Shown here: in pieces, positions 1-20,567 of the stretch
How positions within the stretch are numbered: the first letter of the stretch is position 1
How the letters are laid out: every line of letters starts with the position of its first letter
Assembly (NCBI GenBank): GCA_045633625.1
Contig: JAZQYP010000034.1
Coordinates: forward strand, 4,530 to 68,529
From: Eubacteriales bacterium
GTDB lineage: Bacteria > Bacillota > Clostridia > Oscillospirales > CAG-272
Direction of reading: 5' to 3'
DNA: 64,000 nucleotides
Translations under genes and position numbers: made by a program
Notes under the pieces: model-generated
Database searches by the model: none
Told to the model about the DNA's origin: nothing
Seen by the model: only the letters and a program-made list of their open reading frames with translations

Positions 1-479
1 AACGTCAAGAAGATTTGGATCGAATTGAAAAAGAACGAAAAGAAGAAGAACGAAAAAAATATGTTCCTTTTATTAATTTTTATACAAATAAAGTTTTTAT
101 ACCTGACCACACAGTATATGTATCCAGCTTAAATTTTTCAGAAACTTCTAAAGAAAAAAAGTTCTTTATTGACTCTTTCTTTTTAAAGAATACAGATTTC
201 ACACCATTTTGTTTAGCTGGAATTTATTTTAATAATCATATTGCTATATGCCAACCTGCTGCATATATCGATAAGCAATGGATAGTAGAAATACGTCTTG
301 ATGAACATTTGATTTTATCGGAAGATTTATTTGCTTTAGGTATTTGTGCGAGAGATTTATTAGGCAATGAATATAGGATACCATTAGATTATAGTCTTAC
401 CGTGGATGAAAACCAGAATACTATTATCATACTTAAAGGTAGTTATTTAGCAGAGCACATAGAAAAAAAGCAAGTGTAA
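1..479 (+). CDS. Hypothetical protein, 5'-truncated by the window edge (AT-rich, probably cargo of an upstream cassette)
   Basis: Frame is open from base 3 to TAA at 477-479; markedly AT-rich codons; no recognisable motif. Confidence 0.6.
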   Translation, partial: RQEDLDRIEKERKEEERKKYVPFINFYTNKVFIPDHTVYVSSLNFSETSKEKKFFIDSFFLKNTDFTPFCLAGIYFNNHIAICQPAAYIDKQWIVEIRLDEHLILSEDLFALGICARDLLGNEYRIPLDYSLTVDENQNTIIILKGSYLAEHIEKKQV

Positions 480-674
480 TTAAGTTGAAAATAAAGACAC
501 ATAACCTTTTCCCATCATCATTGTATCAATTTGCGTGGTTCACGAAAAAGTTGCAAATGATTTATTCAAAAACCGTGTACAAAAACATCCAAACACGATA
601 TAATGCATTCAGCAAAACTTAAAGTGATGTGTTCAGACAGGTAAGATTTTGCAATGTAATTATCTAAATACTGC

Positions 675-703
675 TTGATTTACAAGGCTTTATATGATAT
701 AAT
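675..703 (+). promoter_or_regulatory. sigmaA-type promoter in repeat copy 1
   Basis: TTGATT-17 bp-TATAAT with extended -10 (TGn); conserved in copy 2. Confidence 0.65.
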
Positions 704-737
704 AATCTCATCCCCAAAGCTATAAAGCCTCTAATGC

Positions 738-830
738 GTTGAGATGATGGGACTTATCGGCGCTGGTAACAACCCCATGGTCGGAATGACCGTTGCAGTT
801 GCAGTTGCTATCGAAGAGGCAAGCAAGTAA
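738..830 (+). pseudogene. Displaced 3' fragment (30 codons plus stop) of a GGGtGRT-family gene
   Basis: Translates VEMMGLIGAGNNPMVGMTVAVAVAIEEASK*, which I recognise as the C-terminus of GGGtGRT proteins (...AHVEMMGLIGxGNNPMVG); no RBS or upstream coding continuity. Confidence 0.8.
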
Positions 831-850
831 GCCTTGATTCATAAGGCTTC

Positions 851-900
851 GTAGGGTCGATTCACGAATCGACCGCGGGGCATTCGTGAATGCCCCCTAC
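851..900. repeat. REPIN-like doublet: two inverted 25-bp GTAG-type REP palindromes
   Basis: GTAGGGTCGATTCACGAATCGACCG followed by the reverse complement of GTAGGGGGCATTCACGAATGCCCCG; compensatory stem changes. Confidence 0.75.
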
Positions 901-911
901 AAATCATAAAT

Positions 912-967
912 AAAAAAGTTGGACACATCATAAACGTTTTTTCGTTCGTGATGTGTTCAACTTTTTT
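912..967. repeat. Inverted-repeat site IR-1 (AAAAAAGTTGGACACATCA-N18-TGATGTGTTCAACTTTTTT); may double as a bidirectional terminator
   Basis: Near-perfect 19-bp arms; recurs at 9409 and 10194. Confidence 0.9.
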
Positions 968-973
968 ATATAC

Positions 974-2944
974 TTAATCCTTAACTAACATGTAGTACAT
1001 CGAGCGCGCGGTGTTGCCCAGCTTGAATTTAAGCTTTCCGTCACTCTCCACGGCAGGTATTGCACCAATGTAGTATCCCTCGGCGCTGATAGACCAGATC
1101 TTGAGGTTTTTAACGCTTGTGCTAAGCTCGATCTCGACCTCGATATTCTCAATGGTAATAGGTCCATGACCAACATCAACTACCACCTCGCCGTCAAACT
1201 TTGCTTCGGTGTTCATAGCCTTTCCAACAGTTGTGAGAAGTATATTATCAGAGCTTGATATCGGTTCTTTTGTAAGTGAGCTCATAGCTATGACGGCAAA
1301 CTTTGTATCGCATTTTATCTTAAGCCCGTCAAGCTCTATTTCTCCGTTTTGAGCGAGAAATCCGTATGCACATTTAGTCATAGGAGTATCTATCGTTCCG
1401 AAATTTTTCTCCCAATCTCTATAAAGCTCGCCCGTATCAGAGCTTGCCGATCCATTCTCTGCCTCGGTTGGCAATATTTCAAGGCCGTCGCTTTCATCAA
1501 ACGAGGAAACTATCTTATGTCTGTCAACTTGTGTTTCGAGGGATGCAAGGTCAAACTTCAAGGGATCGGTCACAGGAAGCTTATAAATCATGTCGCTCTC
1601 CCTTACATCACCACGACGCATAATAAGCGCCGCGTGGTAAAACAGTCCAAATCTTGCAGGATCGTTCCACGTCATATATACACCCTGACGGTACGGAACG
1701 CCCATCATCATAGGTGACGAAAGCTCTTCACCGAGCTTATTGACTCTCTCAAGTTTTCTCATATAAGAATAGGTATGTATCGAAAAGCCCGACCAGCCCT
1801 GAAACGCACCTACTGCCGCCGCATAGAGCACCGCATCTGCGCGATAGGCATCGGGCCACTGTGAGCACCATTCGGAAATATACGTTGGGTGGTCGATATC
1901 CGAAATACAAGCCGTCTTATGCAAGAAAGAAGCTCTCTCACGGCAGACCGATATATTCGGCATACTTCTCTCAAATTCCTTCCAACAGCCGAGTGTTGCA
2001 GGTGAGAATAGATATGCGTGGTTATCTATAAAGTCACAAGTAAGCTGTGCTATATGGTGCGCAGGATTTCTATACCAATTAGTACCGGCGATGGGAATCT
2101 TTACACCGATCGAGCGCAAATGCTCACGCATTTCGGCATAGTATCTTGTCTCAAGATCACTCTTAAAATTCACGTAATCTATATCATCATTATCAAAAGG
2201 ATCTATCTCTTCGGGGTTGCGTTCAATTCCCTTCTCACAAAGCCACTTGCGAAAGAGCTCAATAAATTCGCTTCTGTAAGGCTCAATATAGCCGTCAGGA
2301 AATCTCTTTCTGTAATTTGAAAAGAGATCGCTTTCGTTAGCTATCTCACAAAGCACAAAAGCAGGGTCGTCACAGTATTTTAGCGAGGTATAGGGATTAA
2401 AATGCGTCCAAAGCTCGGTGGCATACTCCTTTTGAAGCTCAATAAGCTTATGTGAGAAGCTGCTGAATGGACTCGACCCAAAAAGATGTGCGTTCTCTAC
2501 CCCTTCTTCCTCGTGGAATTTTCTATGCACCAGAAGATCGAGATAGACGTATATTCCTTCATTTTTAAGACAGCTTACAAAATAGTCGAGTCTGTCCATC
2601 GACTCATCGCAAAGGTGTGCATTCGTTATTCTCTTGCCTCTCTCAAAAGCAAAAATATTTGGAACCTGCCCCTCGGAGTCAAGCTGATGAAGCCTTACTA
2701 TATTTATTCCTACTTTTGCAAGTCGATGAGCAAGCTTTCTTGCATAATCGTGCTCGGGAAAGCACGCCATTCCATTCATACACGTACCCCAGAATTTTGC
2801 GATCGTGCCGTCCTCAAAAACAAATCTTCTACCCTCGGCACGTATAAAACCGTGCTTACCCGCAGGCTTTTCGTCCCCAAATACAAACGAGATATCTATT
2901 GGCATATCATCGTGATAAAATGGATAAGGAATGTATGTTGACAT
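974..2944 (-). CDS. Clan GH-A (GH5-like) glycoside hydrolase, cytoplasmic
   Basis: GINIVRLHQ, YVYLDL, acid/base motif EIANE, nucleophile-like ISEW; no signal peptide. Confidence 0.75.
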   Translation of the reverse strand: MSTYIPYPFYHDDMPIDISFVFGDEKPAGKHGFIRAEGRRFVFEDGTIAKFWGTCMNGMACFPEHDYARKLAHRLAKVGINIVRLHQLDSEGQVPNIFAFERGKRITNAHLCDESMDRLDYFVSCLKNEGIYVYLDLLVHRKFHEEEGVENAHLFGSSPFSSFSHKLIELQKEYATELWTHFNPYTSLKYCDDPAFVLCEIANESDLFSNYRKRFPDGYIEPYRSEFIELFRKWLCEKGIERNPEEIDPFDNDDIDYVNFKSDLETRYYAEMREHLRSIGVKIPIAGTNWYRNPAHHIAQLTCDFIDNHAYLFSPATLGCWKEFERSMPNISVCRERASFLHKTACISDIDHPTYISEWCSQWPDAYRADAVLYAAAVGAFQGWSGFSIHTYSYMRKLERVNKLGEELSSPMMMGVPYRQGVYMTWNDPARFGLFYHAALIMRRGDVRESDMIYKLPVTDPLKFDLASLETQVDRHKIVSSFDESDGLEILPTEAENGSASSDTGELYRDWEKNFGTIDTPMTKCAYGFLAQNGEIELDGLKIKCDTKFAVIAMSSLTKEPISSSDNILLTTVGKAMNTEAKFDGEVVVDVGHGPITIENIEVEIELSTSVKNLKIWSISAEGYYIGAIPAVESDGKLKFKLGNTARSMYYMLVKD

Positions 2945-2956
2945 ATTTTTTCTCCT

Positions 2957-4186
2957 TTATTTTGTTAGTGCAAATTCCATTTGTGCAAGTATTCTCATAG
3001 GATCATCGGCAAACAATTCCTCGGCAAGCAAGGACGCTTCAACGGGCTTTCCGTCAAATGTAGGCGGATACACGTCACCAAGAGCTAATGCCTTATCTAT
3101 CTTTTGTCCGAGGATCTTTTCTGCCAATTCATTTGTTGTTATTGCTCCGTCGGGATAGTCAAATCGACAGCCTACGTCCATCAAATTCGGTGTAGTCATA
3201 TCGGCTTTAGGCACACCTAAATGACGGCAGAAAAAGTCAGTAAGCACAAGAACATCTTCTTCCTCCCAAGAGTGTTTGGTGGCGGTGATCGATGACTCGA
3301 AATTATAGCCAGCCCCCATTTTCTCATAAACGGCACGCACCTTTCGAACAGTTTTACGAAAGAGGTCAGCAGGAAAAAGGTCGTCGTATCTTCCGTTACA
3401 AAGCATAAGCGGCTTTGGAGCAAATGCAGAATATATTTCAGGCATATCCGCAAGATGTGCAGAACCGCGAAGAAGATTACAAGCACAATGCTTTTTCTCC
3501 TTTGCGTGAACGTAGGAAAACTCAGACGGATAGCCGCAAGAAGCAACTGCCGAGAGTCGCTTATTTGTTGCTGTCAAAAAGAGCGTCAGCGTTCCGCCAC
3601 CCGAATTGCCGCAGGCTCCTATACGTGAGCTGTCAATAAAAGGCTGCTCTGCGAGCCATTCTATCCAGGCATTAGTCTCCCTGACTATCATACCTTGGAG
3701 GGTAATACCTCCAACAAGTGGAGAGATGGCATCAAGATGCCCGAACTCCTTGCGTGAGCCCTGACCGAGGTTGTCGCTCATAAGTACGGCAAAGCCCTGT
3801 GACGCAAAGCTGAAAGCCATTTTTTGATAAGCCTCATCAAGTCGCCCGTCGGTGCTGTGTCCGTTGCATATAATTATTGCGGGAAACTTTTTTTCGCTTG
3901 TATTTGGAAAAATAAGATTTGCCTCTCCGTAAGTGTTTTTAAAGGAGCCAAACTGCATAAAGCGAACACAATATCCGTTATGCTCCTCATCTTTTGAGGC
4001 AATAATTTTTATATTTGGCATCGGTATCTTGTCAAGACAGAGCATCTGTTGCGCTTCTTTTTTGATATCGTTGCGAACATCCGCTAATGCGGCATCGCGA
4101 AAGCGCTTATCAAACCGCGCCTTAGCAAATCGCCTTTCATACGAATCGAACACCCGTAAGGTATATTCAAATTTATCTGTATTCAT
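2957..4186 (-). CDS. Alpha/beta hydrolase (acetyl xylan esterase / dienelactone hydrolase-like)
   Basis: Nucleophile elbow GNSGGG, PAIIICNGH, downstream Asp (DDLFP) and His (KHSW). Confidence 0.75.
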   Translation of the reverse strand: MNTDKFEYTLRVFDSYERRFAKARFDKRFRDAALADVRNDIKKEAQQMLCLDKIPMPNIKIIASKDEEHNGYCVRFMQFGSFKNTYGEANLIFPNTSEKKFPAIIICNGHSTDGRLDEAYQKMAFSFASQGFAVLMSDNLGQGSRKEFGHLDAISPLVGGITLQGMIVRETNAWIEWLAEQPFIDSSRIGACGNSGGGTLTLFLTATNKRLSAVASCGYPSEFSYVHAKEKKHCACNLLRGSAHLADMPEIYSAFAPKPLMLCNGRYDDLFPADLFRKTVRKVRAVYEKMGAGYNFESSITATKHSWEEEDVLVLTDFFCRHLGVPKADMTTPNLMDVGCRFDYPDGAITTNELAEKILGQKIDKALALGDVYPPTFDGKPVEASLLAEELFADDPMRILAQMEFALTK

Positions 4187-4206
4187 AGCACTACCTCGTC
4201 ATTATA

Positions 4207-5256
4207 TCACATTTCCTCGGAATTTACAAACACCTTTTCCCTTACCGTCTCGCAGTATCCGCATTTTTCACAATCCTTTTTGCAAGCGGTGGTACGCTCA
4301 AACCAATCGGAAGGAAAACGGTCGTTGTCGATAACGTAAGGCGCAAAGGTAGGTCCGTGACCCGGTTCAAAGAGATCGGCGAGATTACCGTTGTAGCTTC
4401 TGCGCGCATAGGCATCGATCACCATAGCGGGAAGCGCGTGCATACGTGTTGCAAGCTTTATGCCGTCAACAAGACCATCGTAGTTATGTATATCCTCGGG
4501 TCTTATCCATGTGTTTTCTAAAAACGACGCCCAATTTTCGGGATTTTTGAGATAGCTTCTGCACCCCGATGCTCCTGCCCAAGAAAGATTTTCCTTTGTC
4601 ATAATTGACGATTCGTGCGCGACCGCATTGTCGTGGAAGGTCTGCATCGAGCAAGAACGCATACAACCGCTGTTTGCAAGAAGAGTAATTCCTTTTCCGT
4701 TACCACGCAGATATTCTGACACCCTGCCAAGTGCGTCAAGGTCTCGGTTTATGTCACGGAATATACAAAACGAATCAAAAATATGCTCAATATATTGAAT
4801 TCCTTTTATAGTCGATATACGCATATTGACCGAGGCTCTGATGTCGATATTTTTATCGTATCTGCGTACTATCTCGGCAGTTACAGGAGATGCGGTAGTT
4901 ACTATCTCCGGAGAGATATCCTTGCGGTAAAGATAATCGAGCACTGATACGACCTCGCGCTCGTGAGCAAGACTCAAAGCATCGTCTCCGTTACAGAGCG
5001 CATTAAAAAGAAGGTCTAATTTTACACCCATTCGCTTTATTTGTACAAGCTCCTCGGTAAGCATTTCGAGGGATTCAAAATCGGTATAACCGCGCACTGT
5101 CCCAAGAGGACTTCTGCCACCCGCAATACCCGGAAATGAGAAATATACCTCGCCTATCGCCTCGCGGTAAGTCTCGACGATTTTTGGAAATGGCATCTGC
5201 CCCTCACCCGTAAAGCTATGGCCTACGAGCAAGGGTGTTTTATTATTAGTCTGCAT
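4207..5256 (-). CDS. Peptidase U32-family-like Fe-S protein
   Basis: IRASVN, RDINRDL, LANSGCMRSC, WIRPED, IKLATR motifs and C-terminal CxxxCxxCxxC; start moved to the ATG at 5256 (GGAG RBS). Confidence 0.75.
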   Translation of the reverse strand: MQTNNKTPLLVGHSFTGEGQMPFPKIVETYREAIGEVYFSFPGIAGGRSPLGTVRGYTDFESLEMLTEELVQIKRMGVKLDLLFNALCNGDDALSLAHEREVVSVLDYLYRKDISPEIVTTASPVTAEIVRRYDKNIDIRASVNMRISTIKGIQYIEHIFDSFCIFRDINRDLDALGRVSEYLRGNGKGITLLANSGCMRSCSMQTFHDNAVAHESSIMTKENLSWAGASGCRSYLKNPENWASFLENTWIRPEDIHNYDGLVDGIKLATRMHALPAMVIDAYARRSYNGNLADLFEPGHGPTFAPYVIDNDRFPSDWFERTTACKKDCEKCGYCETVREKVFVNSEEM

Positions 5257-6268
5257 CTGATTCTGCTCCACCGTCTGCAATGTCAATAATATCGTCAAGG
5301 TACTTTTCATTTCCATCCTCGCTCCAATCTACCTGCCAAGGACGGCGGCGACGGAATGGCTCCTTGAACTGGTTTTTCAGAACCCCACGCGCTTCAAGGC
5401 TCATCATACAAGCGCGTGTGCAGCCGCGTGCTCCGCAGACAGCTTGACCGCTTTGATAAAGTATCTTCGGACGCTTAAAGAAAGGTGTGTGTGCGCCCCT
5501 TTTTATGTTGTCTCTGCCGGGCACGTCTATGTAGTCTCCCTTGCCAAAGTCGGTGCGCTCTCCGCCACTAAAGTAATCGTTACACTTTACTGTGTCGATC
5601 TCACCCCACTCGACCTCGTGTCCGGCAAGAGTTACCTTAACAGTCTTTGTTTCGCTAATGCAGTGACCGGGACATGCACGAACGCAAGCCATGCACTTGT
5701 TGCAAAGCTTGGGACCATCATAGATGGGATCAGGCTCAAGCTCCATTTCGGTAAGCACGACACCTATACGAACGCGGGGACCGAACTCGGGACAAAGGAA
5801 CATCTTGCTGTATCCTATCTCACCAAGTCCCGCGAGATATGCCGCGATTCGAAGATGTATCATAATGTCGGGTGCCGGTAATCCCTTTCTGACAGGAACA
5901 CTGTATTTTTTCTTGAGCTTTCCCTCATTATCTATCGCGCGCCAATCGCTCTGATGTCCTATCGGAATAGCCTCATATCCCTCGTCCTCAATATGCTTGC
6001 AAAGATTTATTACCGTCATCGGTATGTAATTATATGTAAGCCCTCCATATCCCATTGCGGAATAGTTACTGAAGAACGTTCCCTCTTCAATACCGCGCAA
6101 CGATCCCCGCATAACGCGGAAGCCCATAACTATCATACTCTTTGCCTCGGGCATAATGTATCGAGGATCCATTTGCTTAGGTGCCCCCTCAAATCGATCC
6201 ATCGAAGCTATACCTACAATATCGGCGCCAAGACTTTTTGCTAACTGCTTAATTTCTTCTTTTGTCAT
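5246..6268 (-). CDS. QueG/reductive dehalogenase-like (cobalamin, 4Fe-4S) reductase
   Basis: GADIVGIA N-terminus, AAYLAGLGEIG, PEFGPRVR, CxxCxxCxxxCP and a later CGxxGCxxxC. Confidence 0.75.
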   Translation of the reverse strand: MTKEEIKQLAKSLGADIVGIASMDRFEGAPKQMDPRYIMPEAKSMIVMGFRVMRGSLRGIEEGTFFSNYSAMGYGGLTYNYIPMTVINLCKHIEDEGYEAIPIGHQSDWRAIDNEGKLKKKYSVPVRKGLPAPDIMIHLRIAAYLAGLGEIGYSKMFLCPEFGPRVRIGVVLTEMELEPDPIYDGPKLCNKCMACVRACPGHCISETKTVKVTLAGHEVEWGEIDTVKCNDYFSGGERTDFGKGDYIDVPGRDNIKRGAHTPFFKRPKILYQSGQAVCGARGCTRACMMSLEARGVLKNQFKEPFRRRRPWQVDWSEDGNEKYLDDIIDIADGGAESDAD

Positions 6269-6288
6269 AATAAAAGTTTCCTTTCTGT

Positions 6289-7485
6289 CTATTTTGTAAA
6301 TTTCTTTGACAATTCCATAGATGCTTCTATTATCATATCAGCGGCATCGGGATAGTATGCTGTGCTCCCTTCCGCTCCGTAGCCACCTCTCGGTATAGCC
6401 TCACGGGTAGGAATATAGCTTATCCAGTCATTTGTATTACAAGTAGGTATAGTCATCTTGAAAGCGGAACCTGTTTTTATTTTTCTCCCTATCTCTCCGA
6501 ATGCCTCTCCGGGGAGACCCATAAACGCAACTTCACCAAGAGCCAAGCAACTGACTCTGGCGCTTCTCGCGCTTGCCCTGTCGCTTACCGACGGAATTAA
6601 TATTTCTTTTATCTCAAAGGAGATCTTTCCTGTCATTACAGGCTCGGCATAGGTATAAGCACTAAGGACTGCACCTGCTATGACGCGGCCTATATGCTGT
6701 ATATGCGTATAACCTCTCTTTGCGTTATAAATATCAATCGTACCCGTATCTCCCTCGGCTCCGTTAAAAAATGCTACCTTTGCACCCTTTCCATTTGCCT
6801 CATCGGAGAGGGCTTGCTCGAGTGTCAGTCTTACAAAATGAATGTAATCGGCTGAAAACTTTGTTATCGAACCAAGCGTGCAGGGATGTGTGGCAAAATT
6901 CACAATAACAACATCGTGTCCGCCGTTGCGTACGAACTTTATAAATTGAACGCTCTCGTCAGGCTCACTCTCACGGCAAATGACATCGGAATCGTCCTTT
7001 GAGGGATTCATCTTACAGGTGCCGTCCTTCATTATAAACCGTCGGACAAAGGAAACGTTTTTAGCCTCACCCCTACCGACGTACGCTTCAGCCTCTTTGA
7101 GATCGGCTATTGCAATACCCGCAGAATCTGCAACTCTCCCAAAAAAGAAATCGACGTATCTCCAATCCTTCTCGAACATAACCCCGCTTATTTCGGGGGT
7201 ATAATGCGAATGCGTACAATGGATAAACACTGCGTCACCATCCACGCCGTATCGTTCTGATATCATATTTCTTATTTTATCGTGATCGACGCGGCGCATT
7301 TCAAGTATGTCGAGCGTGATCGCAACAGCAATCCTGTCCCCGTCGGAAAATGCGACGGCAGTCGCATAAAGCCCGTCAAGAATGCCGTCCGCTATCCTCG
7401 GTTTGCCAAGACCGTTTATCACTGTCCCGAGCGGCGCCGTTATCTCAAGTCGTGAATATCCTACTTTCATATAGCTCAAACTCAA
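6289..7485 (-). CDS. Neutral/alkaline ceramidase-like metallo-amidohydrolase
   Basis: HCTHSH, NFATHP, SADY, FFNGAEGD, LPGEAF, YIPT motifs; start may be the ATG at 7470. Confidence 0.7.
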   Translation of the reverse strand: MSLSYMKVGYSRLEITAPLGTVINGLGKPRIADGILDGLYATAVAFSDGDRIAVAITLDILEMRRVDHDKIRNMISERYGVDGDAVFIHCTHSHYTPEISGVMFEKDWRYVDFFFGRVADSAGIAIADLKEAEAYVGRGEAKNVSFVRRFIMKDGTCKMNPSKDDSDVICRESEPDESVQFIKFVRNGGHDVVIVNFATHPCTLGSITKFSADYIHFVRLTLEQALSDEANGKGAKVAFFNGAEGDTGTIDIYNAKRGYTHIQHIGRVIAGAVLSAYTYAEPVMTGKISFEIKEILIPSVSDRASARSARVSCLALGEVAFMGLPGEAFGEIGRKIKTGSAFKMTIPTCNTNDWISYIPTREAIPRGGYGAEGSTAYYPDAADMIIEASMELSKKFTK

Positions 7486-8465
7486 TCATTCTTTTTGATT
7501 TTTGTAAATGTTGCAAAAGTACTTATAGCTATTATCATCGAGACGAATGCTGCGGAAAGAGATGACCCACATCCCTTGTCGGCAGCCACATTATCACTTG
7601 AAATCTCATTATTAGAAGAGTCAAGTACGGTTTCTCTCGGATCAGTTTCAGCAGGTATCACATCCTCACCCCCCGTCTCCGTATAAGGTTCCTCGGTCTC
7701 GGGTGCCTCACCGAAAGTCATTACGTGAGGAAAACGTCTGCCGTCTGCTCCCTTACCCCAAAGTTTGCCTTCAACCTCTGCGGCATCCGCAGAGGTTGCA
7801 AGTGCTTCATGCTCGCGGGGGAGTATAGTTCCAAACCATATTTCAGGATAGTCATTGGGATAGTTTTCGACATCGCGGTCATCTCTCATCATAAGAAGTA
7901 TAGAAAAAACCGTTATATCCTCAGGCTCAACGCCTATATAATCCGCAAGAGCAGTTCTTCCTATAACAAGCTCGTATACGATGGTATTTCCAATCGTTGA
8001 CGTTTCAAAAGCGTATGCCTCGTCACTTTCGGGAAAGCCTCCAAATACGTATCTTACGTAGACTCCGTCCAGAAAATCCTTTTCGTTGCAGGAAAGATAG
8101 AAGCAAATATATTCGCCGTCAAGGATTTCTCTCTCGGTAACCTCAGCTCCTATGTAGACGTAATCGTCATCATAGCTGAAATAGAGGTTAAAATTTTCAA
8201 CGTCAAGCGTTGCGGGATCAATACAAAAGAATCTGTTGTCCTCTGCGTCATTTGCGGGATTCATATCCTTGACCTCAAGGGTATATTCACCGTCCTCGAC
8301 AACTCCGTCTGCGATAGGCGGGACGGACGTTTTACCTTCGATGACCCAATGCTGCTGACCTGCATCCTCAAGCTCCATATTCGAATATTCTTCCGCAAAA
8401 GCGCAAAGAGACAAAGCAGTCGCCAAAATAGCCGCGACAATTAACGTACAGGTGAATTTTTTCAT
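7482..8465 (-). CDS. Secreted acidic protein (CBM9/DOMON-like) with a C-terminal GCGS-TM-basic anchor
   Basis: Signal peptide (AFA), PxxDGxxxxGEY and YDDDYVYIG motifs, PETE-rich linker, GCGSS plus hydrophobic helix plus KIKK. Confidence 0.65.
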   Translation of the reverse strand: MKKFTCTLIVAAILATALSLCAFAEEYSNMELEDAGQQHWVIEGKTSVPPIADGVVEDGEYTLEVKDMNPANDAEDNRFFCIDPATLDVENFNLYFSYDDDYVYIGAEVTEREILDGEYICFYLSCNEKDFLDGVYVRYVFGGFPESDEAYAFETSTIGNTIVYELVIGRTALADYIGVEPEDITVFSILLMMRDDRDVENYPNDYPEIWFGTILPREHEALATSADAAEVEGKLWGKGADGRRFPHVMTFGEAPETEEPYTETGGEDVIPAETDPRETVLDSSNNEISSDNVAADKGCGSSLSAAFVSMIIAISTFATFTKIKKND

Positions 8466-8627
8466 AAAATTTCTCCGATCTTCAAATTTATGTTTTAATT
8501 ATATACTCCAAACTGTCTGCTGTAAATTAATAAAACAAATATTTTTTTATATTTTTCAATTTTTATTCTTGTATTTATAGCGGTTTATGATATAATTATT
8601 TTCAATAAACGATTTTAGTGAGGATAT

Positions 8628-9395
8628 ATGAAAGAGATAAATTTTACAGTAACGGACGTAGCATTTGCATATGCAAGACACTATGATAAGGGACATATTT
8701 TTGTGGCAAATAAAAGACCGAAGCACGGCCTTACACTTATTACAAGCGGAGAATTTGAGATGACCATAGCCGGCAAGAAGCTCTCTGTCCCTCAAGGAAG
8801 CGTCATCATGCAGAGAAAAAATGACAGCTACAAGCTTACGTCTGTGAGCGACAGCGGAGTTGATTACATTGTAATTTCCTATGACGTAGAGCCCGAAACG
8901 GAAATTTTCTCACTTATTCCTGACAGAATATTTTTTGCCGAGCATATCGGGCGCTATATCCACGCATTTGAGAGTGCTGCGCGTTTGTTTGGATCTTGTG
9001 GAATTTGCAATAAAACCCTTTTACGCACAATAGTTCAGGAAATACTTTGCAATATTATTGATGACATCTATTCGACGCTCCTATACTCTCAAAGAAATCC
9101 CGTGGAGTATGCCAAAAGCTATATTGAACAGTATTTCAACTGCCCCTTAAGTGTTGATAATATCTCATCGGTAGTCGGACTTTCCCCCTCTTATCTGCGA
9201 ACGCTGTTCAAAAAAAGCGAGGGTGAAAGCCCTAATCACTATCTCAATCGCACAAGAATAGAGCACGCCAAAGAAATGCTACTTTCCGAGATGTTCACCA
9301 TTGAAGAGGTAGCGTCTGCCTGCGGTTTTCAAAACGTCTATTATTTCAGCCGCGTTTTTAAAAAATATACAGGAATCCCACCCGGAAAATATTAA
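8628..9395 (+). CDS. AraC-family transcriptional regulator, divergent from the cargo operon
   Basis: C-terminal AraC HTH (IEEVASACGFQNVYYFSRVFKKYTGIPP). Confidence 0.92.
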   Translation: MKEINFTVTDVAFAYARHYDKGHIFVANKRPKHGLTLITSGEFEMTIAGKKLSVPQGSVIMQRKNDSYKLTSVSDSGVDYIVISYDVEPETEIFSLIPDRIFFAEHIGRYIHAFESAARLFGSCGICNKTLLRTIVQEILCNIIDDIYSTLLYSQRNPVEYAKSYIEQYFNCPLSVDNISSVVGLSPSYLRTLFKKSEGESPNHYLNRTRIEHAKEMLLSEMFTIEEVASACGFQNVYYFSRVFKKYTGIPPGKY

Positions 9396-9408
9396 ATCAA
9401 ATCAAATT

Positions 9409-9465
9409 AAAAAAGTTGGACACATCATAAACGTTTTTTCGTTCGTGATGTGTCCAATATTTTTT
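9409..9465. repeat. Inverted-repeat site IR-2
   Basis: Same arms and identical 18-bp spacer as IR-1. Confidence 0.9.
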
Positions 9466-9613
9466 GCTTGAAAAAGTACTATATACCGTCGGTGTATAAG
9501 TATATAGAGGTGATAGGATTTGCCATTGCCAAATATATTTATCCCTAATAGTAACTATTGGATTATCCGCAACATTTCCGCAAACTCTTCGACCACATCA
9601 TTTACGGCGACGT

Positions 9614-9853
9614 CAAAACGCGATATAATGTTTTCAGGAAAATTGAATATGATGTGTTCAGCGATAAGGATTTTGCAATTTAGAGACTAAAAAATGCTTG
9701 ATTTACAAGGCTTTATATGTTATAATAATTTCATCCCCAAAGCTATAAAGCCTCTAATGCGTTGAGATGATGGGACTTATCGGCGCTGGTAACAACCCCA
9801 TGGTTGGTATGACGGTGGCTGTAGCTGTTGCTATCGAAGAGGCAAGCAAGTAA
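9614..9853 (+). repeat. Direct repeat copy 2 (att-like module)
   Basis: Matches 590-830; contains promoter TTGATT-17-TATAAT at 9698-9726. Confidence 0.95.
9761..9853 (+). pseudogene. Second displaced 3' fragment of the GGGtGRT-family gene
   Basis: Same peptide as 738-830, with 7 synonymous third-position differences. Confidence 0.8.
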
Positions 9854-9917
9854 TTTGATCTTTTAGCTCTTCATGGGTTTTTCCCTATTTTTTTAATGTA
9901 ATTAAGGAGGCCTTATC

Positions 9918-10133
9918 ATGTCTTATCAAATGGCAGGACATTCCAAGCTGTGCGCGACTTGCAATTACTGGCTCGGCCCGCGTCAGATCAATTGGTGCGC
10001 AAGTCATGTTGTGCTTGAAGCGCAAAGTATAAAGGGCAAATGCTGGTGTCAGGGCGGTCCTCACATGCGTGCTGATAGACTCAGCAATTTTTGTGCTTGC
10101 TCGCGCTATGAAAAGTGGTCGGTGTTGAAATAA
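9918..10133 (+). CDS. Small cysteine-rich protein (71 aa), possibly metal-binding
   Basis: Strong AAGGAGG RBS; CATCNYW, GKCWC and CAC motifs. Confidence 0.75.
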   Translation: MSYQMAGHSKLCATCNYWLGPRQINWCASHVVLEAQSIKGKCWCQGGPHMRADRLSNFCACSRYEKWSVLK

Positions 10134-10193
10134 GGATGCGTGTTACTTTTCTTTTGAAAAAAAGTAACCAAAAGAAAGCTTTACATACTTAAT

Positions 10194-10248
10194 AAAAAGT
10201 TGGACACATCATTTTGGAGAAATCCGTAGTGATGTGTCCAATATTTTT
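10194..10248. repeat. Inverted-repeat site IR-3
   Basis: GTTGGACACATCA-N18-TGATGTGTCCAA with a different spacer sequence of the same length. Confidence 0.85.
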
Positions 10249-10327
10249 CTATATTAGAAAAAGTGAAATTGAATTTCCGAATAATAAAAATTTCCTCGGG
10301 GGTACGTCCAAAACGTGTATATAACTA

Positions 10328-10356
10328 TTGACAAAATTGCAAAAAAATTGTAGAAT
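10328..10356 (+). promoter_or_regulatory. sigmaA promoter of the large surface protein
   Basis: TTGACA-17-TAGAAT. Confidence 0.7.
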
Positions 10357-10453
10357 TAATATGTATAGGTGTTTACATCTTTAATTAATTTTTATTTCTA
10401 TGTTTTTGGGTCCCCCAAAAAAGCAAAAAAACAATTCACCACGGAGGTAAAAA

Positions 10454-13400
10454 ATGGCTACAAGAAAAGTTACAAAGCGCGCCTTGTTTTTGAGCTTTGT
10501 GTCCATGTTTTTGTGTTTCACAATGCTTATTGGAACAACTTATGCATGGTTTACTGACTCTGTAAGCAGCGCAACAAACATTATTACTGCTGGAAACCTC
10601 GACGTTGAGCTTTACCATGCCAACGAGGGTACAAACGATGCCGACGAAAAGGTTACAAGCACAACTACTCTCTTCACCGACGTTGATTCGGCAAAGTGGG
10701 AGCCCGGCGCTATGGCTTGGGAGAAGTTCACCGTTAAGAACGTGGGAACACTTGCTCTCAAGTATGAGTTCGCGCTCAACGTAACGAGCGCAAGCGTTGT
10801 AGACGGCATATCCTTTGCAAAGATGCTTAAGGTTGCCGTTGTTGACGAGAGCTTTGATTATACACGCGAGAACGTAAACAACATTCCCGCTACCGAGTGG
10901 AAGGATCTCGATTCCTTTGAGGTCATCGCTTCCGCACCCGAGGGACTTGAGAATAATGAGTCCAAGACCTTTGGTGTAATCATTTGGTGGCAGCCCTCGG
11001 AGAAAGACAACCTCTTTAATATGAACAATGGCAAGCAGGTCGGCTCTATAGGTGTTGACGTAGGCGTTGTACTTAACGCAAGCCAGTTCACGTTTGAAGA
11101 GGATAGCTTTGGTATAGATTACGATACTACCGCAACCTTCCCGATGGCAAAGATCAACTTTACATCCGAGGAGGACGTAACCGATAAGATCGACCAGACA
11201 AGTGGCGCTCTTACCGAGAACGTTACCGTTGGTGACGATAGAAACGATATTCAGGCAGAGGTTCCTGCAGGCGTTACTATGGCAGAGGGAGCAGATAAGC
11301 TTGAGCTTACTGTAAAGACTATCGAGGAAAGCTCTGCAAATATCGTTATTGACGAGGAGAATCAGTCTACAGTTTCGGTAGACGTACATATCGAGGGCGT
11401 TGCAGAGGACAATACCGTTCCTATGAAGATAGTTATGAAGGGATTTATGAAGCCCGGACTTAACGATAACAACTATGCGCTCTATCACGTTGAGAACGGC
11501 GTTACCAATGCTATGACCTTGGTACCCTATTCGGAGCTTGACGCGCACAACGAGTTTTCGTATAACGCAGTAACCGGTGACGTAACCCTTTGCCTTGCAT
11601 CCTTCTCAGAGGTTGCAGCAGTTGCCGATGAGGTCGTTCACTGGGACGGAAAATCTGCTACTGCATTTGCTACATATGAAAATGGTACTTATGGTACTGG
11701 TTCTGCTGAAAAACCCCACCTCATCGCAAACGCAAGCCAGCTTGCATATTTCCGTGATCTTGTTGATGGTGGAAGAACATTTGAAGGTGAGTACGTCAAG
11801 CTTGCTAATGACATAATTCTTAACCACCATGGTGAGACAAGAAACCAGTTCGATCCTATCGGCTGGGGCTATGCTAATAGCGCCTACAATGCAGGCGGCG
11901 CTGCCGGCAAGGTCTTTATGGGAACCTTCGACGGCGGCGAGTATGACGCAAGTGGCAAGCTCGTTGGCCGTCACGGCATTCACGGTCTCTGGCAGAACGG
12001 CTGGGATCTTGAAGCCAAGACCAAAACCGACTACACCTACACTAACTGTGGCTTCGGTCTCTTCGCATCTGTTAAGGACGCTACAATTAAGAACCTTGAG
12101 ATCAAGCACGCAAACGTTGTTGTTGAGTGCGTTGAGGCAGGTATTGTAGTAGGTCTTGCGCAGGGTAATTGTACCTTTGAGAATCTTTATGTTTACTCGT
12201 CCCACATCGCTAACTACCAGCGTCCCGCGGGCGGTGTTGTCGGTGAGGTCAGCCCTCGATTCGAGAACGGTGTAGCACAGGAGAGCACAGTTACCTTCAA
12301 CAACGTACACGTTGGTTCTTCCTGTACCGTAGGTTCTCTTTGGGGTGATTTTGATACTCCCTGCGGCGGTGTTATCGGCGCATATTGGGATGATGCGGGA
12401 AAGACCACGGTTAATATGAATAGCGTTGACGTGTCCTGCGTTCTTGACGTTTACAGCGACGTTACTTCCGCATATCAGTGGTACGCATACCGCCGTGCGG
12501 GTATGCTTATCGGTAATACCGACCAGCCCCCTGCAGATGGTAAGAATGCCAAGGTTGCTACTGCGAATTTCCTAAACTGTACAAACTGCGTAGTTATCTA
12601 CGATTATTGGGCAGATTATAAGTATTGTCAGTTTACAAACAACAATAACCCCGGCAAAAACTATCCTTGGGTAAGAATTCAGGCAAGCCAGTATAACGGC
12701 GCATATTCTAACCCCAGATACGGTCATCCTAAGGACCTTCACGATCACTTGGTAACCAGCGATAACCATGAGCATCAGGAAGGAGACAAATGCCACGAAT
12801 ACATCCCCTTCAATCAGCTTTACGGCGGCGGTCAGGGTGTTTACGGTCAGACCGGTCATCCCGGTGTTACCATCGGTAAGTACACCATTGTCTATATGGT
12901 TGGTGATGAGATTCAGGACGTACACTACGTTGCAAACAACTCTGTTCCTTATACCGCTCTTCTGCCTCTTGAAGCGGGATATGAGTGGGTTGACATAGAC
13001 AGTAATAAAGTTACCCAGATTCCCGCGGGCAACACCAGTCACATAGTCCTTTACCGTAACACAACTGATAAGAATATGGTGCGTTTCGTTGATAAGGACG
13101 GCTACGTTATCACAGAGCAGGAATTTGCTTACGGTAAGGATGCGAGTTATTACCAGACAAATATAACACCCCCTTCCGTTCCTCCTGTTGAGGGATACTA
13201 CGGTGTATGGCCCGAATGGTGGAAGATGCTTGCGGCTGTAACAAAAGATGGAGAGGATGTTACAGTCCATGCAGTTTATACCGTAATCTATGAGGAAGAT
13301 AACGAGGCAGTTACTCCTGATAAGGAGATCGTAATCTTTGACGAGAACGGCGACACAGGTGACCTCTTCCAGATGATCTCTCAGGGCAAGAGCGTTGTAA

Positions 13401-13981
13401 TGTACAAAGATCTTGCGGGTAATATCGGAAGCGCAAGCATCAAGACCTTTGCTACAGTAGGTGATCCAAATACTAATGGTTGGGTTTCTAACCATGCACG
13501 TCTTGATCTTGATTCCTTCGAATTGGTGTATGATAATGACAGCAATGCCGCTCAGAACTGGACACTCTTTACCATCAAGGAAGGTGCTTCATTGACCGTT
13601 GGAGGCGGTGTGCACGGTGGCGGTAAGCTTTCCTTCGTATTTAATACGCTAAATAAAAACTCTGCACCTCGTCTCTTCAATCTTGAATACGTAGAGGGCA
13701 ACGTGGATAATGGCGGACACGAGATTCACTCCACTCTTATCCTTGAGCGTGGTGTTGTTATCGAAATGAAGTTCCATAAGAACATTTTCAATAAAAATAG
13801 TAATTTCAGCATTTCCGAAGAAAATATTAAAACTTTAATCACCGGTCACTCCCATCCGGACGGTACCGAGGAACAGCATCATCCTGGAATTCAGGTAGAA
13901 ATAAGCGAAGAAGGTGATTACAAAGTTATTCGCCTCATCGTTAATTCCTATACCACCTTCGTTGGTAACACGGCTAACTAA
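10454..13981 (+). CDS. Large surface protein with SipW-class (TasA/camelysin-like) signal peptide and GLUG-like beta-rich region
   Basis: GTTYAWFTDSV...ITAGNLDVEL N-terminus; WDG...GSAEKPHLIANASQLA motif; GGAGG RBS. Confidence 0.8.
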   Translation: MATRKVTKRALFLSFVSMFLCFTMLIGTTYAWFTDSVSSATNIITAGNLDVELYHANEGTNDADEKVTSTTTLFTDVDSAKWEPGAMAWEKFTVKNVGTLALKYEFALNVTSASVVDGISFAKMLKVAVVDESFDYTRENVNNIPATEWKDLDSFEVIASAPEGLENNESKTFGVIIWWQPSEKDNLFNMNNGKQVGSIGVDVGVVLNASQFTFEEDSFGIDYDTTATFPMAKINFTSEEDVTDKIDQTSGALTENVTVGDDRNDIQAEVPAGVTMAEGADKLELTVKTIEESSANIVIDEENQSTVSVDVHIEGVAEDNTVPMKIVMKGFMKPGLNDNNYALYHVENGVTNAMTLVPYSELDAHNEFSYNAVTGDVTLCLASFSEVAAVADEVVHWDGKSATAFATYENGTYGTGSAEKPHLIANASQLAYFRDLVDGGRTFEGEYVKLANDIILNHHGETRNQFDPIGWGYANSAYNAGGAAGKVFMGTFDGGEYDASGKLVGRHGIHGLWQNGWDLEAKTKTDYTYTNCGFGLFASVKDATIKNLEIKHANVVVECVEAGIVVGLAQGNCTFENLYVYSSHIANYQRPAGGVVGEVSPRFENGVAQESTVTFNNVHVGSSCTVGSLWGDFDTPCGGVIGAYWDDAGKTTVNMNSVDVSCVLDVYSDVTSAYQWYAYRRAGMLIGNTDQPPADGKNAKVATANFLNCTNCVVIYDYWADYKYCQFTNNNNPGKNYPWVRIQASQYNGAYSNPRYGHPKDLHDHLVTSDNHEHQEGDKCHEYIPFNQLYGGGQGVYGQTGHPGVTIGKYTIVYMVGDEIQDVHYVANNSVPYTALLPLEAGYEWVDIDSNKVTQIPAGNTSHIVLYRNTTDKNMVRFVDKDGYVITEQEFAYGKDASYYQTNITPPSVPPVEGYYGVWPEWWKMLAAVTKDGEDVTVHAVYTVIYEEDNEAVTPDKEIVIFDENGDTGDLFQMISQGKSVVMYKDLAGNIGSASIKTFATVGDPNTNGWVSNHARLDLDSFELVYDNDSNAAQNWTLFTIKEGASLTVGGGVHGGGKLSFVFNTLNKNSAPRLFNLEYVEGNVDNGGHEIHSTLILERGVVIEMKFHKNIFNKNSNFSISEENIKTLITGHSHPDGTEEQHHPGIQVEISEEGDYKVIRLIVNSYTTFVGNTAN

Positions 13982-13997
13982 TAACTAAACAAAGCTT

Positions 13998-14025
13998 AAA
14001 AGCCACCCGTACGGGTGGCTTTTTT
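13998..14025 (+). terminator. Rho-independent terminator
   Basis: AAAAGCCACCCGTACGGGTGGCTTTTTT. Confidence 0.85.
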
Positions 14026-14147
14026 GTATTGAAAAAAGCTATGTTTGGCGGACATGTTTGAGCTTTTCCTTAAAAACAACTTGAAAAACAGGAGCAATTA
14101 TGATATAATGTCAATATATATTTATACAAACGCAAGGAGCTGAATTT

Positions 14148-14561
14148 ATGACTCTTGAAGAGCGCCACGAGCAAGTGGAAGGATATCTTGGCAAGACCAT
14201 AACAATAGAGATCGATCGTCCAATCGGCTATATTCACCATAAGGGAGAAAAGACCTTGGTCTATCCGATCAACTATGGGTATATTCCCGATGTCCTTGGC
14301 GGAGACGGTGAGGAGCTTGACGTATTTTTAGTAGGGGTAAGCGAGCCACTCACTTCATACACAGGGCATATAATCGGGATAGTTTATCGCGCGGATGACG
14401 TAGAGGACAAGCTCGTTATGGCTCCCTCGGGAAAGATTTTTTCTGCCGAGGAAATCGCTCGCGCGGTATATTTTCAAGAAAAATACTACGAAACGACCAT
14501 TCGCACTCTCGACGGCTCATCGGTATTAATATCAAATCTAACAAGTTCAGAGAACAAATAA
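14148..14561 (+). CDS. Small family-I-like inorganic pyrophosphatase
   Basis: YPINYGYIP..GGDGEELDVF and EDKLV motifs. Confidence 0.8.
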   Translation: MTLEERHEQVEGYLGKTITIEIDRPIGYIHHKGEKTLVYPINYGYIPDVLGGDGEELDVFLVGVSEPLTSYTGHIIGIVYRADDVEDKLVMAPSGKIFSAEEIARAVYFQEKYYETTIRTLDGSSVLISNLTSSENK

Positions 14562-14574
14562 AGGAGGGGGCAGT

Positions 14575-15150
14575 ATGGCTAAAATTTGTCCGAATTGTTC
14601 GCTTAAGCACAAGAACGCTTCAACAGTTTGCGCTAAATGCGGAACTCCTCTAAAAAGCTCCAAAGTCAAAAAAAGTATCCCTTTTATCCTTACTATAGTG
14701 ACAATCTGTGTCATTCTTTCCCTTCTCTTTTATTTTGGTTACAACTTGTTTTTTGGCCCCTGCGCCAAGGCAATTTCAGTTATGAATGCAGCCGACAAGG
14801 GCGATTCAACGGCGCTTATCAGAATTCTTCCTGATTTTTTGTTTGAGAGCGAAAATTATGACGAAAAAATCATAAAATCACACATTTCTTCGTTCTCAAA
14901 TTCCCTCAAGGATAGAATACGATTCTTTTATCCCGAGCATCCTCAAACCGCATCAACTGCTCAGCGAACAGGCATCATAAAGTCACTAAAGGATATCGTT
15001 GGTGAAAGCTTTGATACAGACTCTATAGAGAATATGAAGACGGTTTGGGTATACGTTAGAGAAGGCACGTCCGACTATTGGGAAGGATATTGGATAAAGC
15101 TTACAATAATAAAATACAATGGCGAATGGTGCTGGTGGCCGTATTATTAA
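14575..15150 (+). CDS. Zinc-ribbon membrane protein (paralog 1)
   Basis: CPNC...CAKCG, one TM helix, ends KYNGEWCWWPYY. Confidence 0.8.
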   Translation: MAKICPNCSLKHKNASTVCAKCGTPLKSSKVKKSIPFILTIVTICVILSLLFYFGYNLFFGPCAKAISVMNAADKGDSTALIRILPDFLFESENYDEKIIKSHISSFSNSLKDRIRFFYPEHPQTASTAQRTGIIKSLKDIVGESFDTDSIENMKTVWVYVREGTSDYWEGYWIKLTIIKYNGEWCWWPYY

Positions 15151-15184
15151 GTCTTAAAACATTATTTTCTCCGGAGGTAATACT

Positions 15185-15769
15185 ATGTCAAAGATATGTC
15201 CTAATTGCAATATTAACTATTCAAATTCCGCTGTGAAGTGTGTTACCTGCGGTAGTCCGCTTGTGCTTCTTGAAATGCCTAAAAAGAAAAAGTCTATAAT
15301 TATATCTCTTATAATTACCGCGGCAATTCTTGTTATCGCTGCTATTACCACTATAACGGTAGTAAGCCTTACCGGGCCAAGAGGCAAGGTAAGATACATT
15401 ATGAATAACCTCAAGAAAAACGATATAGATGCCGTTCTGGATACTGTACCCGATTTTTTGCTAGATCCCGATTTGGAATATAAGGACGATATCTTGATAG
15501 GGCTTACAACATACACCGACAATATGTCGGGATATATATTCTCCTTCAACACCAATAAATGTGTAACTCCTTCAACAAGTCAGATCACCGAGCTAAAGCA
15601 ATCGATACAATCAATTGTTGGAGAAAATTTTGACACAAGCAAGATAGAGGACGTCAAGATGGTTTGGGTAGATATAAGAGGAGGTACATTTGCATTTTGG
15701 AATTCATCTGATGCAAGATTCGTTATGATCAAATACAACGATGAATGGCACTGGTGGCCGTATTATTGA
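15185..15769 (+). CDS. Zinc-ribbon membrane protein (paralog 2)
   Basis: CPNC...CVTCG, one TM helix, ends KYNDEWHWWPYY. Confidence 0.8.
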   Translation: MSKICPNCNINYSNSAVKCVTCGSPLVLLEMPKKKKSIIISLIITAAILVIAAITTITVVSLTGPRGKVRYIMNNLKKNDIDAVLDTVPDFLLDPDLEYKDDILIGLTTYTDNMSGYIFSFNTNKCVTPSTSQITELKQSIQSIVGENFDTSKIEDVKMVWVDIRGGTFAFWNSSDARFVMIKYNDEWHWWPYY

Positions 15770-15922
15770 TATAAAACAAAGGGAGATAACGTCTCCCTTT
15801 TTTATTAACATTTTCCCATATTAAATTAAAAAATGTATTGAAAAAAACTTGCGAGTGTGTTATAATTGGTTTGTTTTTGAGGAAATATATTCCTATACAA
15901 TTTTATCATCAGGAGAAAAACA

Positions 15923-17059: not shown

Positions 17060-17068
17060 GGTGAAACA

Positions 17069-17224
17069 ATGAATAATTTTGATTTTCATATAGACGTAAA
17101 CGCTTTTGTTGAATCCCTTGGCTATATGGCAAAGGGCATGGTGGGAATTTTTATCGTTACGGCTGTCATCGTTCTCTCGATGGTTCTCCTCAATAAGTTC
17201 ACATCAAAAAAAGCAGACAAGTAA
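17069..17224 (+). CDS. OadG-like small membrane subunit (51 aa; below the ORF-track cutoff)
   Basis: MNNFDFHIDVNAFVESLGYMAKGMVGIFIVTAVIVLSMVLLNKFTSKKADK; AAGGTG RBS; directly after oadB. Confidence 0.8.
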   Translation: MNNFDFHIDVNAFVESLGYMAKGMVGIFIVTAVIVLSMVLLNKFTSKKADK

Positions 17225-17227
17225 AAA

Positions 17228-17255
17228 AATAAAGCCGCGAAAGCGGCTTTATTTT
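17228..17255. terminator. Bidirectional terminator
   Basis: AATAAAGCCGCGAAAGCGGCTTTATT between convergent genes. Confidence 0.8.
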
Positions 17256-17671: not shown

Positions 17672-17674
17672 AAA

Positions 17675-18106: not shown

Positions 18107-18138
18107 AGGATACCTCCCTTTTGTAAGCTTACAATATC

Positions 18139-18207
18139 ATTATACAGCATCTTTTTCTAATGTCAACTGATTCTGATTATGCGGTAGTTTAGATAATTTA
18201 TGCGGTA
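18139..18207 (-). promoter_or_regulatory. Promoter with LytTR-type direct repeats
   Basis: TACCGCATAA repeated with a 21-bp period (18177-18186, 18198-18207), upstream of TTGACA-16-TATAAT. Confidence 0.75.
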
Positions 18208-18240: not shown

Positions 18241-18242
18241 CT

Positions 18243-20526: not shown

Positions 20527-20567
20527 TTTTCTTTCTCCTTGTATGGAAATTATTTTCTATGGATGTG

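Follow-up and report, generated by a model that had tools for sequence, protein, structure and literature searches.

Probable tandem stacking of site-specific genomic islands at the end of the GGGtGRT gene in uncultured gut Clostridia

Why do the last codons of a GGGtGRT gene, joined to a conserved non-coding stretch, occur twice within 10 kb of DNA with a gene attached to neither copy? The question arises in the window, by which we mean the whole analysed stretch of 64,000 nucleotides (nt) from an Eubacteriales bacterium (GenBank assembly GCA_045633625.1, contig JAZQYP010000034.1). The window covers positions 4530-68529 of this contig, here called C34, in genome G000, a draft of 77 contigs. 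Our analysis indicates that site-specific genomic islands have piled up at the 3' end of the GGGtGRT gene, which is single-copy, and that the window probably contains the distal part of this pile-up. The repeated modules are attachment (att) junctions, composed of an element arm, a 93-nt core, a second arm and a hairpin. The finding would amount to a dedicated insertion hot spot, together with its integrase family, in a large group of uncultured animal-gut Clostridia.

A repeat search of the window paired 664-830 with 9687-9853 (167 nt, 93% identity, spacing 9023) and, as a second aligned block, 585-636 with 9610-9661 (81% identity, spacing 9025). BLAST within the genome aligned the two module copies, A and B, over 247 nt at 87%. 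Matches to relatives place the left limits of the non-coding arms at about 538 (arm A) and 9568 (arm B), and the modules extend over ~538-830 and ~9568-9853. The initial annotation had described a module of about 240 bp occurring twice, 9023 bp apart, with seven synonymous differences between the copies; repeat search and alignment bear this out, with arms that reach farther left. It had also recognised the encoded peptide as the C-terminus of GGGtGRT proteins, and the profile match given below agrees.

Each module ends in a short open reading frame (ORF), at 744-830 and 9767-9853, and both encode one identical 28-residue peptide, MMGLIGAGNNPMVGMTVAVAVAIEEASK. Together with the preceding codons for V-E, 30 codons are present; the ORFs begin with ATG-ATG, and an in-frame TAA stands three codons before the ATG. 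Read from two codons upstream, both peptides match positions 300-327 of the 327 positions of PF14057 (E 4.6e-10, 39.4 bits; score cut-off 27 bits). The two small ORFs are fragments of the GGGtGRT family, not members of it. Core or tail A (738-830, plus strand) consists of GTTGAG, 28 codons and a stop, and its protein sequence is identical to the GGGtGRT C-terminus; tail B (9761-9853, plus strand) encodes the same peptide. Pairwise alignment of the tails showed seven differences, of which seven are at the third codon position and all are synonymous. These differences show past protein-level selection, as would be expected if each tail had once been the real end of the gene, in an earlier host or an earlier insertion. 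The core is the stretch that the gene, the elements and every junction have in common.

Arm A, the non-coding right end of an upstream element (538-737, plus strand), aligns with the arms of eight other genomes and contains the conserved blocks CGATATAATG, a GATGTGTTCAGC-like block, GATTTTGCAATG and AAGGCTTT. Arm B (9568-9760, plus strand), which aligns with arm A and with the arms of relatives, is the right end of the 9-kb unit that lies between the two cores. About 80 nt next to the core are near-identical in arms A and B, and the distal parts belong to different subtypes; that of arm B matches genomes G124, G134 and G036, where that of arm A does not. Because the distal subtypes differ and each is closer to other genera, the comparison supports separate origins of the two arms and not a local duplication, in line with the earlier proposal that two or more units, differing in origin, have accreted at this site. 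BLAST within the genome found no further copy of the non-coding arm in G000. RNAalifold on eight proximal arms gave just a 6-pair stem (GGCUUU/AAAGCC, -5.1 kcal/mol).

Tail A is followed by the second arm (P'; 831-972), which ends with hairpin 1 (908-972; -32.9 kcal/mol, z score -10.9). The P' arm was recognised by folding and by its similarity to the flank of an intact GGGtGRT gene on another contig, C35; with the tail included, it is 81% identical over 240 nt to the sequence behind that gene. A 60-nt hairpin repeat was found at 908-967, 9405-9464 and 10189-10248. Hairpin 2 (9405-9469), 93% identical to hairpin 1, directly follows the stop codon of an AraC-family gene and has no tail before it. 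Hairpin 3 (10189-10253), identified by repeat search and folding, has the same stem sequence with a different loop; beyond it, nothing more of the system is recognisable in the window. The window hairpins fold at -28 to -33 kcal/mol (z scores -7.6 to -10.9), with a run of A before and a run of U after them. The genome has four true hairpins, all within the system, namely those of the window and the one that follows the intact gene. The motif GATGTGT(T/C)CA, found once in the arm and twice, inverted, in the hairpin, hints at a site recognised by a protein.

The single full GGGtGRT gene of G000 lies at the end of contig C35 (171514-172494). Behind its stop codon come about 90 nt resembling the flank of tail A, then a hairpin and 30 codons, at which the contig ends. 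These 30 codons are 93% identical to the N-terminus of a tyrosine recombinase of about 313 amino acids (aa) that stands behind GGGtGRT in relatives. The system had at first been called integrase-less, but the intact gene is followed by the start of a dedicated integrase. The initial annotation had suggested looking for an intact gene and a recombinase upstream; in the assembly they lie one behind the other on the separate contig C35, with only 30 codons of the integrase.

To describe this integrase family, five aligned integrases (73-94% identical to the first) were used to scan reference genomes, one per species. The scan gave 138 relatives, and 80 loci were kept and classified by a scripted rule. 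The association between integrase and target is strict: 79 of the 80 loci have, on the strand of the integrase and 115-1306 bp upstream of it, a GGGtGRT C-terminus. This belongs to a full gene at 59 loci and to a gene cut by a contig end at 11; at 8 it is a detached tail, and 1 case is partial. Among the detached tails, that of L066 abuts a contig end and is possibly a cut gene. L113 is the sole locus with no GGGtGRT C-terminus. Identity of the target proteins to that of G000 ranges from 73 to 95%, which means that the association is maintained over wide divergence. The integrase gene, if there is one, starts about 25 nt past the hairpin. The integrase is full length at 67 loci and cut by contig ends at 4, and at the other 9 only the first 100-205 residues are left, with 3 kb of downstream DNA available. 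Such truncated integrases are a plain route to integrase-less remnants.

A SAM-like domain at the N-terminus and a catalytic domain take up the whole integrase, so that a separate arm-binding domain would not fit in. In NCBIfam it matches Xer-type models best, although none of them reaches its cut-off, and its nearest solved relatives are XerA, XerC and XerD. The initial annotation had likened the system to an integron, but the integron integrase model TIGR02249 gave 46.7 bits vs a cut-off of 265 (NF011946, 31.2 vs 435), the integrase lies within the units, twice so in one array, and the cargo mostly reads against the target gene. No relatives of the integrase were found in IMG/VR viral contigs. 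In a family survey of 201 genomes (G000 and a sample of 200 from the family of the window), the GGGtGRT gene was present in 175 genomes and the integrase (at least 72% identity) in 8, while others contained two relatives of lower similarity. A search for the arm at E <=1e-3 detected it in 16 of the 201, with clear matches in 8 genomes besides G000, from several genera.

Gene and detached tails were observed together on one contig in seven cases (G134, G124, G032, G131, G201, G202 and L157), always in the same orientation. In G134 the gene is followed by a 14-kb integrase island, a tail, a 3.7-kb unit with a PocR/AraC regulator and a GHL6 hydrolase, and another tail; in G032, by a 19.6-kb island and a tail. 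The array of G124, from the same genus as G000, consists of the gene, a 2.1-kb unit with a Sel1-repeat protein and a tail, and that of G131 of the gene, a 1.6-kb unit encoding a barnase-like RNase and barstar, and a decayed tail. The longest order was read in G201: gene, 1-kb unit, tail, 16-kb integrase island, tail, 3.4-kb integrase island, tail, 2.3-kb unit and partial tail, where the integrase-less units a (~1 kb) and d encode a TIR protein and a metallophosphoesterase, respectively. G036 has an integrase-less unit of 1.1 kb with a SHOCT protein. On the metagenome contig L157, the gene, hairpin, integrase, ~9 kb, arm and tail form a complete element. In these arrays, integrase-less units span 1-9 kb and are mixed with integrase-bearing islands, and the junction order is constant: arm, tail, about 90 nt, hairpin, and then the integrase start or cargo. 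The claim that elements insert at the 3' end and supply a replacement tail is supported by these single-contig arrays of gene and tails, together with the 79 integrase loci behind a GGGtGRT C-terminus.

Alignment of 21 detached modules showed that similarity to the gene starts sharply at GT(A/T/C)GA(A/G)ATGATGG, and that arm blocks are common across genera, with two main arm types and further subtypes. Detached tails are frameshifted or altered in G131, in G104 and in the second tail of G134. Differences between the tails of one array cluster after codon 13 (G000 and G201). In G124 (L026, contig C12, near 3760-3850), the detached tail is full, and directly behind its stop codon comes a partial one beginning from AACAACCCC; likewise, contigs of one public run (X1) contain a joint from just behind tail B (9856) back to 771, inside AACAACCCC. 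The clustering after codon 13 and the partial tails from this point give a hint, which we hold loosely, of a crossover near the middle of the tail.

Unoccupied sites were sought among 16 genomes with a single-copy gene and long contigs (L119-L134), a hand-picked and not random sample of relatives that are not independent, for which no statistics are claimed. Eight of them are unoccupied, with the tail GMGNNPMVGA(T/S), unrelated GC-rich terminators, no intact hairpin and no integrase; L127, one of these, retains a degenerate trace of a hairpin. The other eight have the G000-type tail GAGNNPMVGMT, and six of these have the hairpin, one with a full integrase and another with an integrase fragment, while L125 and L132 combine this tail with an unrelated terminator. 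Either the elements only use the tail of one lineage, or many lineages owe their present gene end and terminator to rewriting by the elements. GAGNNPMVGMT tails are often followed by the hairpin even where there is no integrase (L123, L124 and L134).

The following scheme would connect these observations. An Xer-like tyrosine integrase family of about 313 aa would insert elements inside the last ~93 nt of the GGGtGRT gene. Each element would carry its own copy of the tail, with an arm of about 200 nt on one side and, on the other, about 90 nt and the hairpin, followed by the integrase gene. After insertion, the gene would keep a complete tail and terminator, and a detached tail with the element's arm would be left at the far end. 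Further insertion in any tail would yield a tandem array in which inner junctions read arm-core-arm'-hairpin. Copy A would then be the inner junction between the upstream element and the 9-kb unit, and copy B the right end of the 9-kb unit. Recombination would take place within the tail, possibly near its middle, and the hairpin may serve both as the terminator of the gene and as a recognition element.

Both ends of the 9-kb unit are intact by sequence, the left consisting of core A, P' arm and hairpin and the right of arm B and core B. The view that this unit has no recombinase was upheld: none was found in 974-9395 by Pfam and NCBIfam scans of the seven ORFs between the copies or by a PF00589 search across the own genome, which detected one tyrosine recombinase on C34, upstream of the window. 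Since it has both site arms and no integrase, the unit appears to be a decayed or cargo-only island of the cis-mobilizable element (CIME) type. It could still be excised by the integrase of a neighbour.

Several results weigh against a pile-up of islands in G000 itself, or against parts of the scheme. The remainder of the integrase gene at the end of C35 is not in the G000 assembly, and the gene and the window tails are on different contigs, so that the array is not in one piece and the linkage of C35 to C34 is inferred. The first 3.5 kb of C34, before the window, contain a pseudo-DUF6809 gene, an XRE regulator, a second, Xer-like recombinase of 279 aa and an SPFH/zinc-ribbon protein. In L049 and G032, this DUF6809-XRE-recombinase-SPFH block follows the integrase on the strand of the gene (the second recombinase is 97% identical to that of L049, and 89-97% across L049 and G032), whereas in G000 the block runs in the inverse direction with respect to the tails, and no integrase adjoins it. 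The layout of gene, integrase, cargo and arm does not fit the upstream element as assembled. The inverted block may reflect an inversion, possibly by the second recombinase, or may be a remnant of another element. Hairpin 2, with no preceding tail, is unexplained by the model, and in the other arrays examined no second hairpin was seen upstream of an arm. The role given to the conserved arms is a guess, because the integrase has no separate arm-binding domain.

Direct signs of mobility are also missing. The stretch is represented in 20 public runs from nine studies of animal-gut metagenomes, in the form of assembled contigs in which uncovered parts of the stretch carry no meaning; four runs from three studies were compared. 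Neither these four runs nor metagenome contigs yielded an excised circle, an empty site or a bridging contig. None of 42 metagenome loci was circular by an end-overlap test, and most of these loci are shorter than 4 kb and broken at a tail or hairpin. Joints from tail A to hairpin 3 and from tail B back to tail A were considered as excision products and rejected, because their sides are only 18-42 letters long and the depth is dominated by the GGGtGRT genes of other organisms.

If units that consist of a hairpin, one or a few genes, an arm and a core are the normal mobile form, shuffled in trans by a resident or neighbouring Xer-like integrase, as in an integron or like the cargo-only units in arrays of tRNA-targeting islands, then the site would be a cassette platform and not a pile-up with decaying members. 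The consequence would be integron-like gene capture in uncultured gut Clostridia, with a housekeeping gene of high expression providing, in its tail, a protein-coding att site. About half of the units on contiguous arrays lack the integrase (the 9-kb unit of G000, those of G134, G124, G131 and G036, and units a and d of G201). The left-end hairpin is kept in the units checked (G000, G134, G124, G131 and both G201 units) and the right-end arm in most, the arm motif being not found for unit d of G201. Cargo starts about 7-65 nt from the hairpin in four units, and in G201 an integrase-less unit sits between the gene and the first integrase. However, besides the integron-integrase score far under its cut-off, the integrase belongs to the units, reads in the direction of the target gene and is present in two copies in the G201 array, and its truncation at 9 of 80 loci gives integrase-less remnants a simple origin. 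The cargo mostly reads against the target gene and has its own regulators. No integrase-less unit was seen twice: the TIR unit of G201 was not found in 200 other genomes of its family, and the closest relatives of a cargo protein of G000 are at most 53% identical and do not lie beside tails. We therefore consider a cassette platform, in which units of one or two genes and no integrase would be working cassettes and not wreckage, unlikely, though it is the more interesting reading and the alternative to which we give most weight.

Two other explanations concern the module itself, and we regard both as very improbable. The module could be a stand-alone small gene, that is, a promoter with a 28-codon ORF or a small RNA with its own function, which has been duplicated. 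Promoter-like sites do occur at matching places in both copies, reading towards the tail (576-604 and 675-703 in arm A, 9601-9629 and 9698-9726 in arm B), one of them with an extended -10, and the ATG-ATG start and purely synonymous differences would suit a small coding gene. However, the peptide is exactly the C-terminus of the GGGtGRT protein of the same genome, detached copies in relatives are frameshifted or replaced, and the stronger promoter is not conserved in the arms of other genomes. A search of 1-14000 against Rfam at E <=1 gave four weak matches, all on the hairpins and far under gathering scores, and none in the arm or tail. In addition, the module always lies at island junctions, beside the integrase or its hairpin. 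Alternatively, the repeat could be a local duplication, or an artefact of assembly or binning, as might be feared of a metagenome-assembled genome in 77 contigs when contigs of the public runs break at hairpins and tails. Against this, the copies are just 87% identical and have different distal arms, the same architecture is found in independent assemblies with contigs up to 245 kb, and two runs belonging to the same study contain contigs that match the cargo at about 98%. A pile-up of islands at the GGGtGRT gene thus remains our preferred explanation.

With regard to the promoter-like sites, the distal one has its TATAAT within the arm block that is most conserved across genera, and if the element were excised as a circle, this site would face the hairpin and integrase from across the att site.

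The elements were also compared with known systems. As in integrons, small and often single-gene units without a recombinase form an array beside a tyrosine recombinase. In contrast to integrons, the integrase is not of the IntI family and is part of the mobile units, and what delimits the units is a gene tail, repeated and with conserved arms, in place of attC sites, which have a conserved structure and a variable sequence. The cargo is mostly antisense to the entry point and has its own AraC regulators, unlike co-oriented cassettes behind Pc. A prophage or phage satellite was rejected as a candidate, there being no IMG/VR relative of the integrase, no virion genes and next to no PHROGs matches. 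Among the Tycheposons, cargo-only members flanked by partial target repeats reportedly exist. Tycheposons are tyrosine-recombinase elements of Prochlorococcus that give rise to variable islands by stacking at a small number of conserved sites (bioRxiv 10.1101/2020.12.28.424599). They differ from the present elements in their tRNA targets, hosts and recombinases.

The target of the streptococcal elements ICESt1 and ICESt3 is fda. In PMC5704250, an accretion scheme is set out in a three-step scenario, with insertion at a 3' end, decay to a CIME that keeps attL and attR, and later stacking; the model is attributed there to Pavlovic 2004 and Bellanger 2011. ICESt1, ICESt3 and the CIMEs of Streptococcus thermophilus resemble the elements described here in their insertion at the 3' end of a protein gene, tandem arrays and decayed units with attL and attR (PMC5704250). 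Here, by contrast, the target is GGGtGRT, the integrase is Xer-like and about 313 aa long, the hosts are uncultured gut Clostridia, and no conjugation or relaxase genes were recognised in the elements.

A second parallel is the ssrA site of Dehalococcoides. According to PMC3146451, several tandem islands stand behind this single-copy gene, each bounded by a direct repeat of the gene 3' end; a conserved motif just upstream of the repeat marks the insertion point, the integration module lies beside attL, and 15 islands with no integration module were proposed to be cis-mobilizable. The GGGtGRT islands match this pattern in their tandem order, repeats, upstream motif, position of the integration module and integrase-less members. 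The Dehalococcoides islands described there use a tmRNA target, a 20-bp repeat and a serine recombinase, whereas the site studied here has a 93-nt protein-coding tail and a tyrosine recombinase. Since the 93-nt target is protein-coding, the repeat records synonymous change, and in such a coding att core these changes can record earlier hosts, which is impossible for tRNA-type sites. As accretion with decayed, cis-mobilizable remnants is already described in both articles (PMC5704250 and PMC3146451), the pattern is of a known kind. Accretion and decay at a gene 3' end are textbook matter, and GGGtGRT as a target and the integrase subfamily seem to be new. Judged by titles and the beginnings of abstracts, none of the papers listed for the term GGGtGRT, the only term by which the target was sought, concerns mobile elements.

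An insertion site of this kind would explain why congeneric species can have entirely different DNA following their GGGtGRT genes. Metagenome assemblies tend to break exactly at GGGtGRT-tail sites, and the gene tail, the hairpin stem and the arm motifs offer a sequence handle for accessory islands in such fragmented assemblies. Among the cargo observed at the site are genes for carbohydrate use, an RNase-barstar pair, TIR and SocA/Panacea proteins and type I restriction-modification-like genes. Genes recognised in the elements encode DUF6809 proteins, resolvases, a replication-initiation O-like protein, type I restriction-modification-like proteins, a protein with a SocA/Panacea antitoxin domain, WYL and AAA_21 proteins and a PARG-NMNAT-like fusion. 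No virion, relaxase or conjugation genes were recognised in the elements, and a PHROGs search with 10 element proteins gave only the replication-initiation O-like match and, at E 9e-4, a weak similarity to one family whose function is not known.

In the 9-kb unit of the window, a cargo operon of six genes (974-8465, minus strand) encodes proteins of 656, 409, 369, 340, 398 and 327 aa. The 409-aa product is an alpha/beta-hydrolase or esterase, the 340-aa product has a 4Fe-4S domain like that of reductive dehalogenase/QueG, and four of the six proteins matched no Pfam or NCBIfam family at the thresholds used. The 656-aa protein (974-2944, minus strand) is one of these, with only a weak GH5-like match (E 0.005). 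Its distribution is patchy: it is present in 10 of the 201 family genomes and in none of three congeners, and G000 has five copies, the four further paralogs (47-53% identical) being on contigs C18, C60 and C47. None of its closest relatives, at most 53% identical, lies beside a tail or hairpin within the flanks examined. An AraC-family regulator (8628-9395, plus strand) completes the cargo. Hairpins 1 and 2 bracket the cargo, 7-10 nt from the outer stop codons. The GC profile was tried as a marker of the 9-kb unit and dropped, as the unit is not set apart by composition.

In public run X2, a 2.8-kb contig replaces 6238-8538 by 106 other letters and does not contain the genes for the 398-aa and 327-aa proteins; low-depth contigs of the same run cover parts of 6238-8538. 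As the contig without this region shows, the cargo operon is polymorphic among close strains.

Between tail B and hairpin 3 lies a 71-aa Cys-rich ORF (9918-10133, plus strand) with no family match in the Pfam and NCBIfam scans. It was rejected as a regular part of the system, since just two distant relatives (33-39%; L066 and L067) occur among the loci. To the right of hairpin 3, the three congeners again show no conservation with the window, from about 10.3 kb up to 20.7 kb. Synteny with G124 resumes only after that, on a G124 contig other than the one with its GGGtGRT gene. The stretch 10300-20700 opens with a protein of 1175 aa that has a SipW-type signal peptide and a camelysin-like N-terminus.

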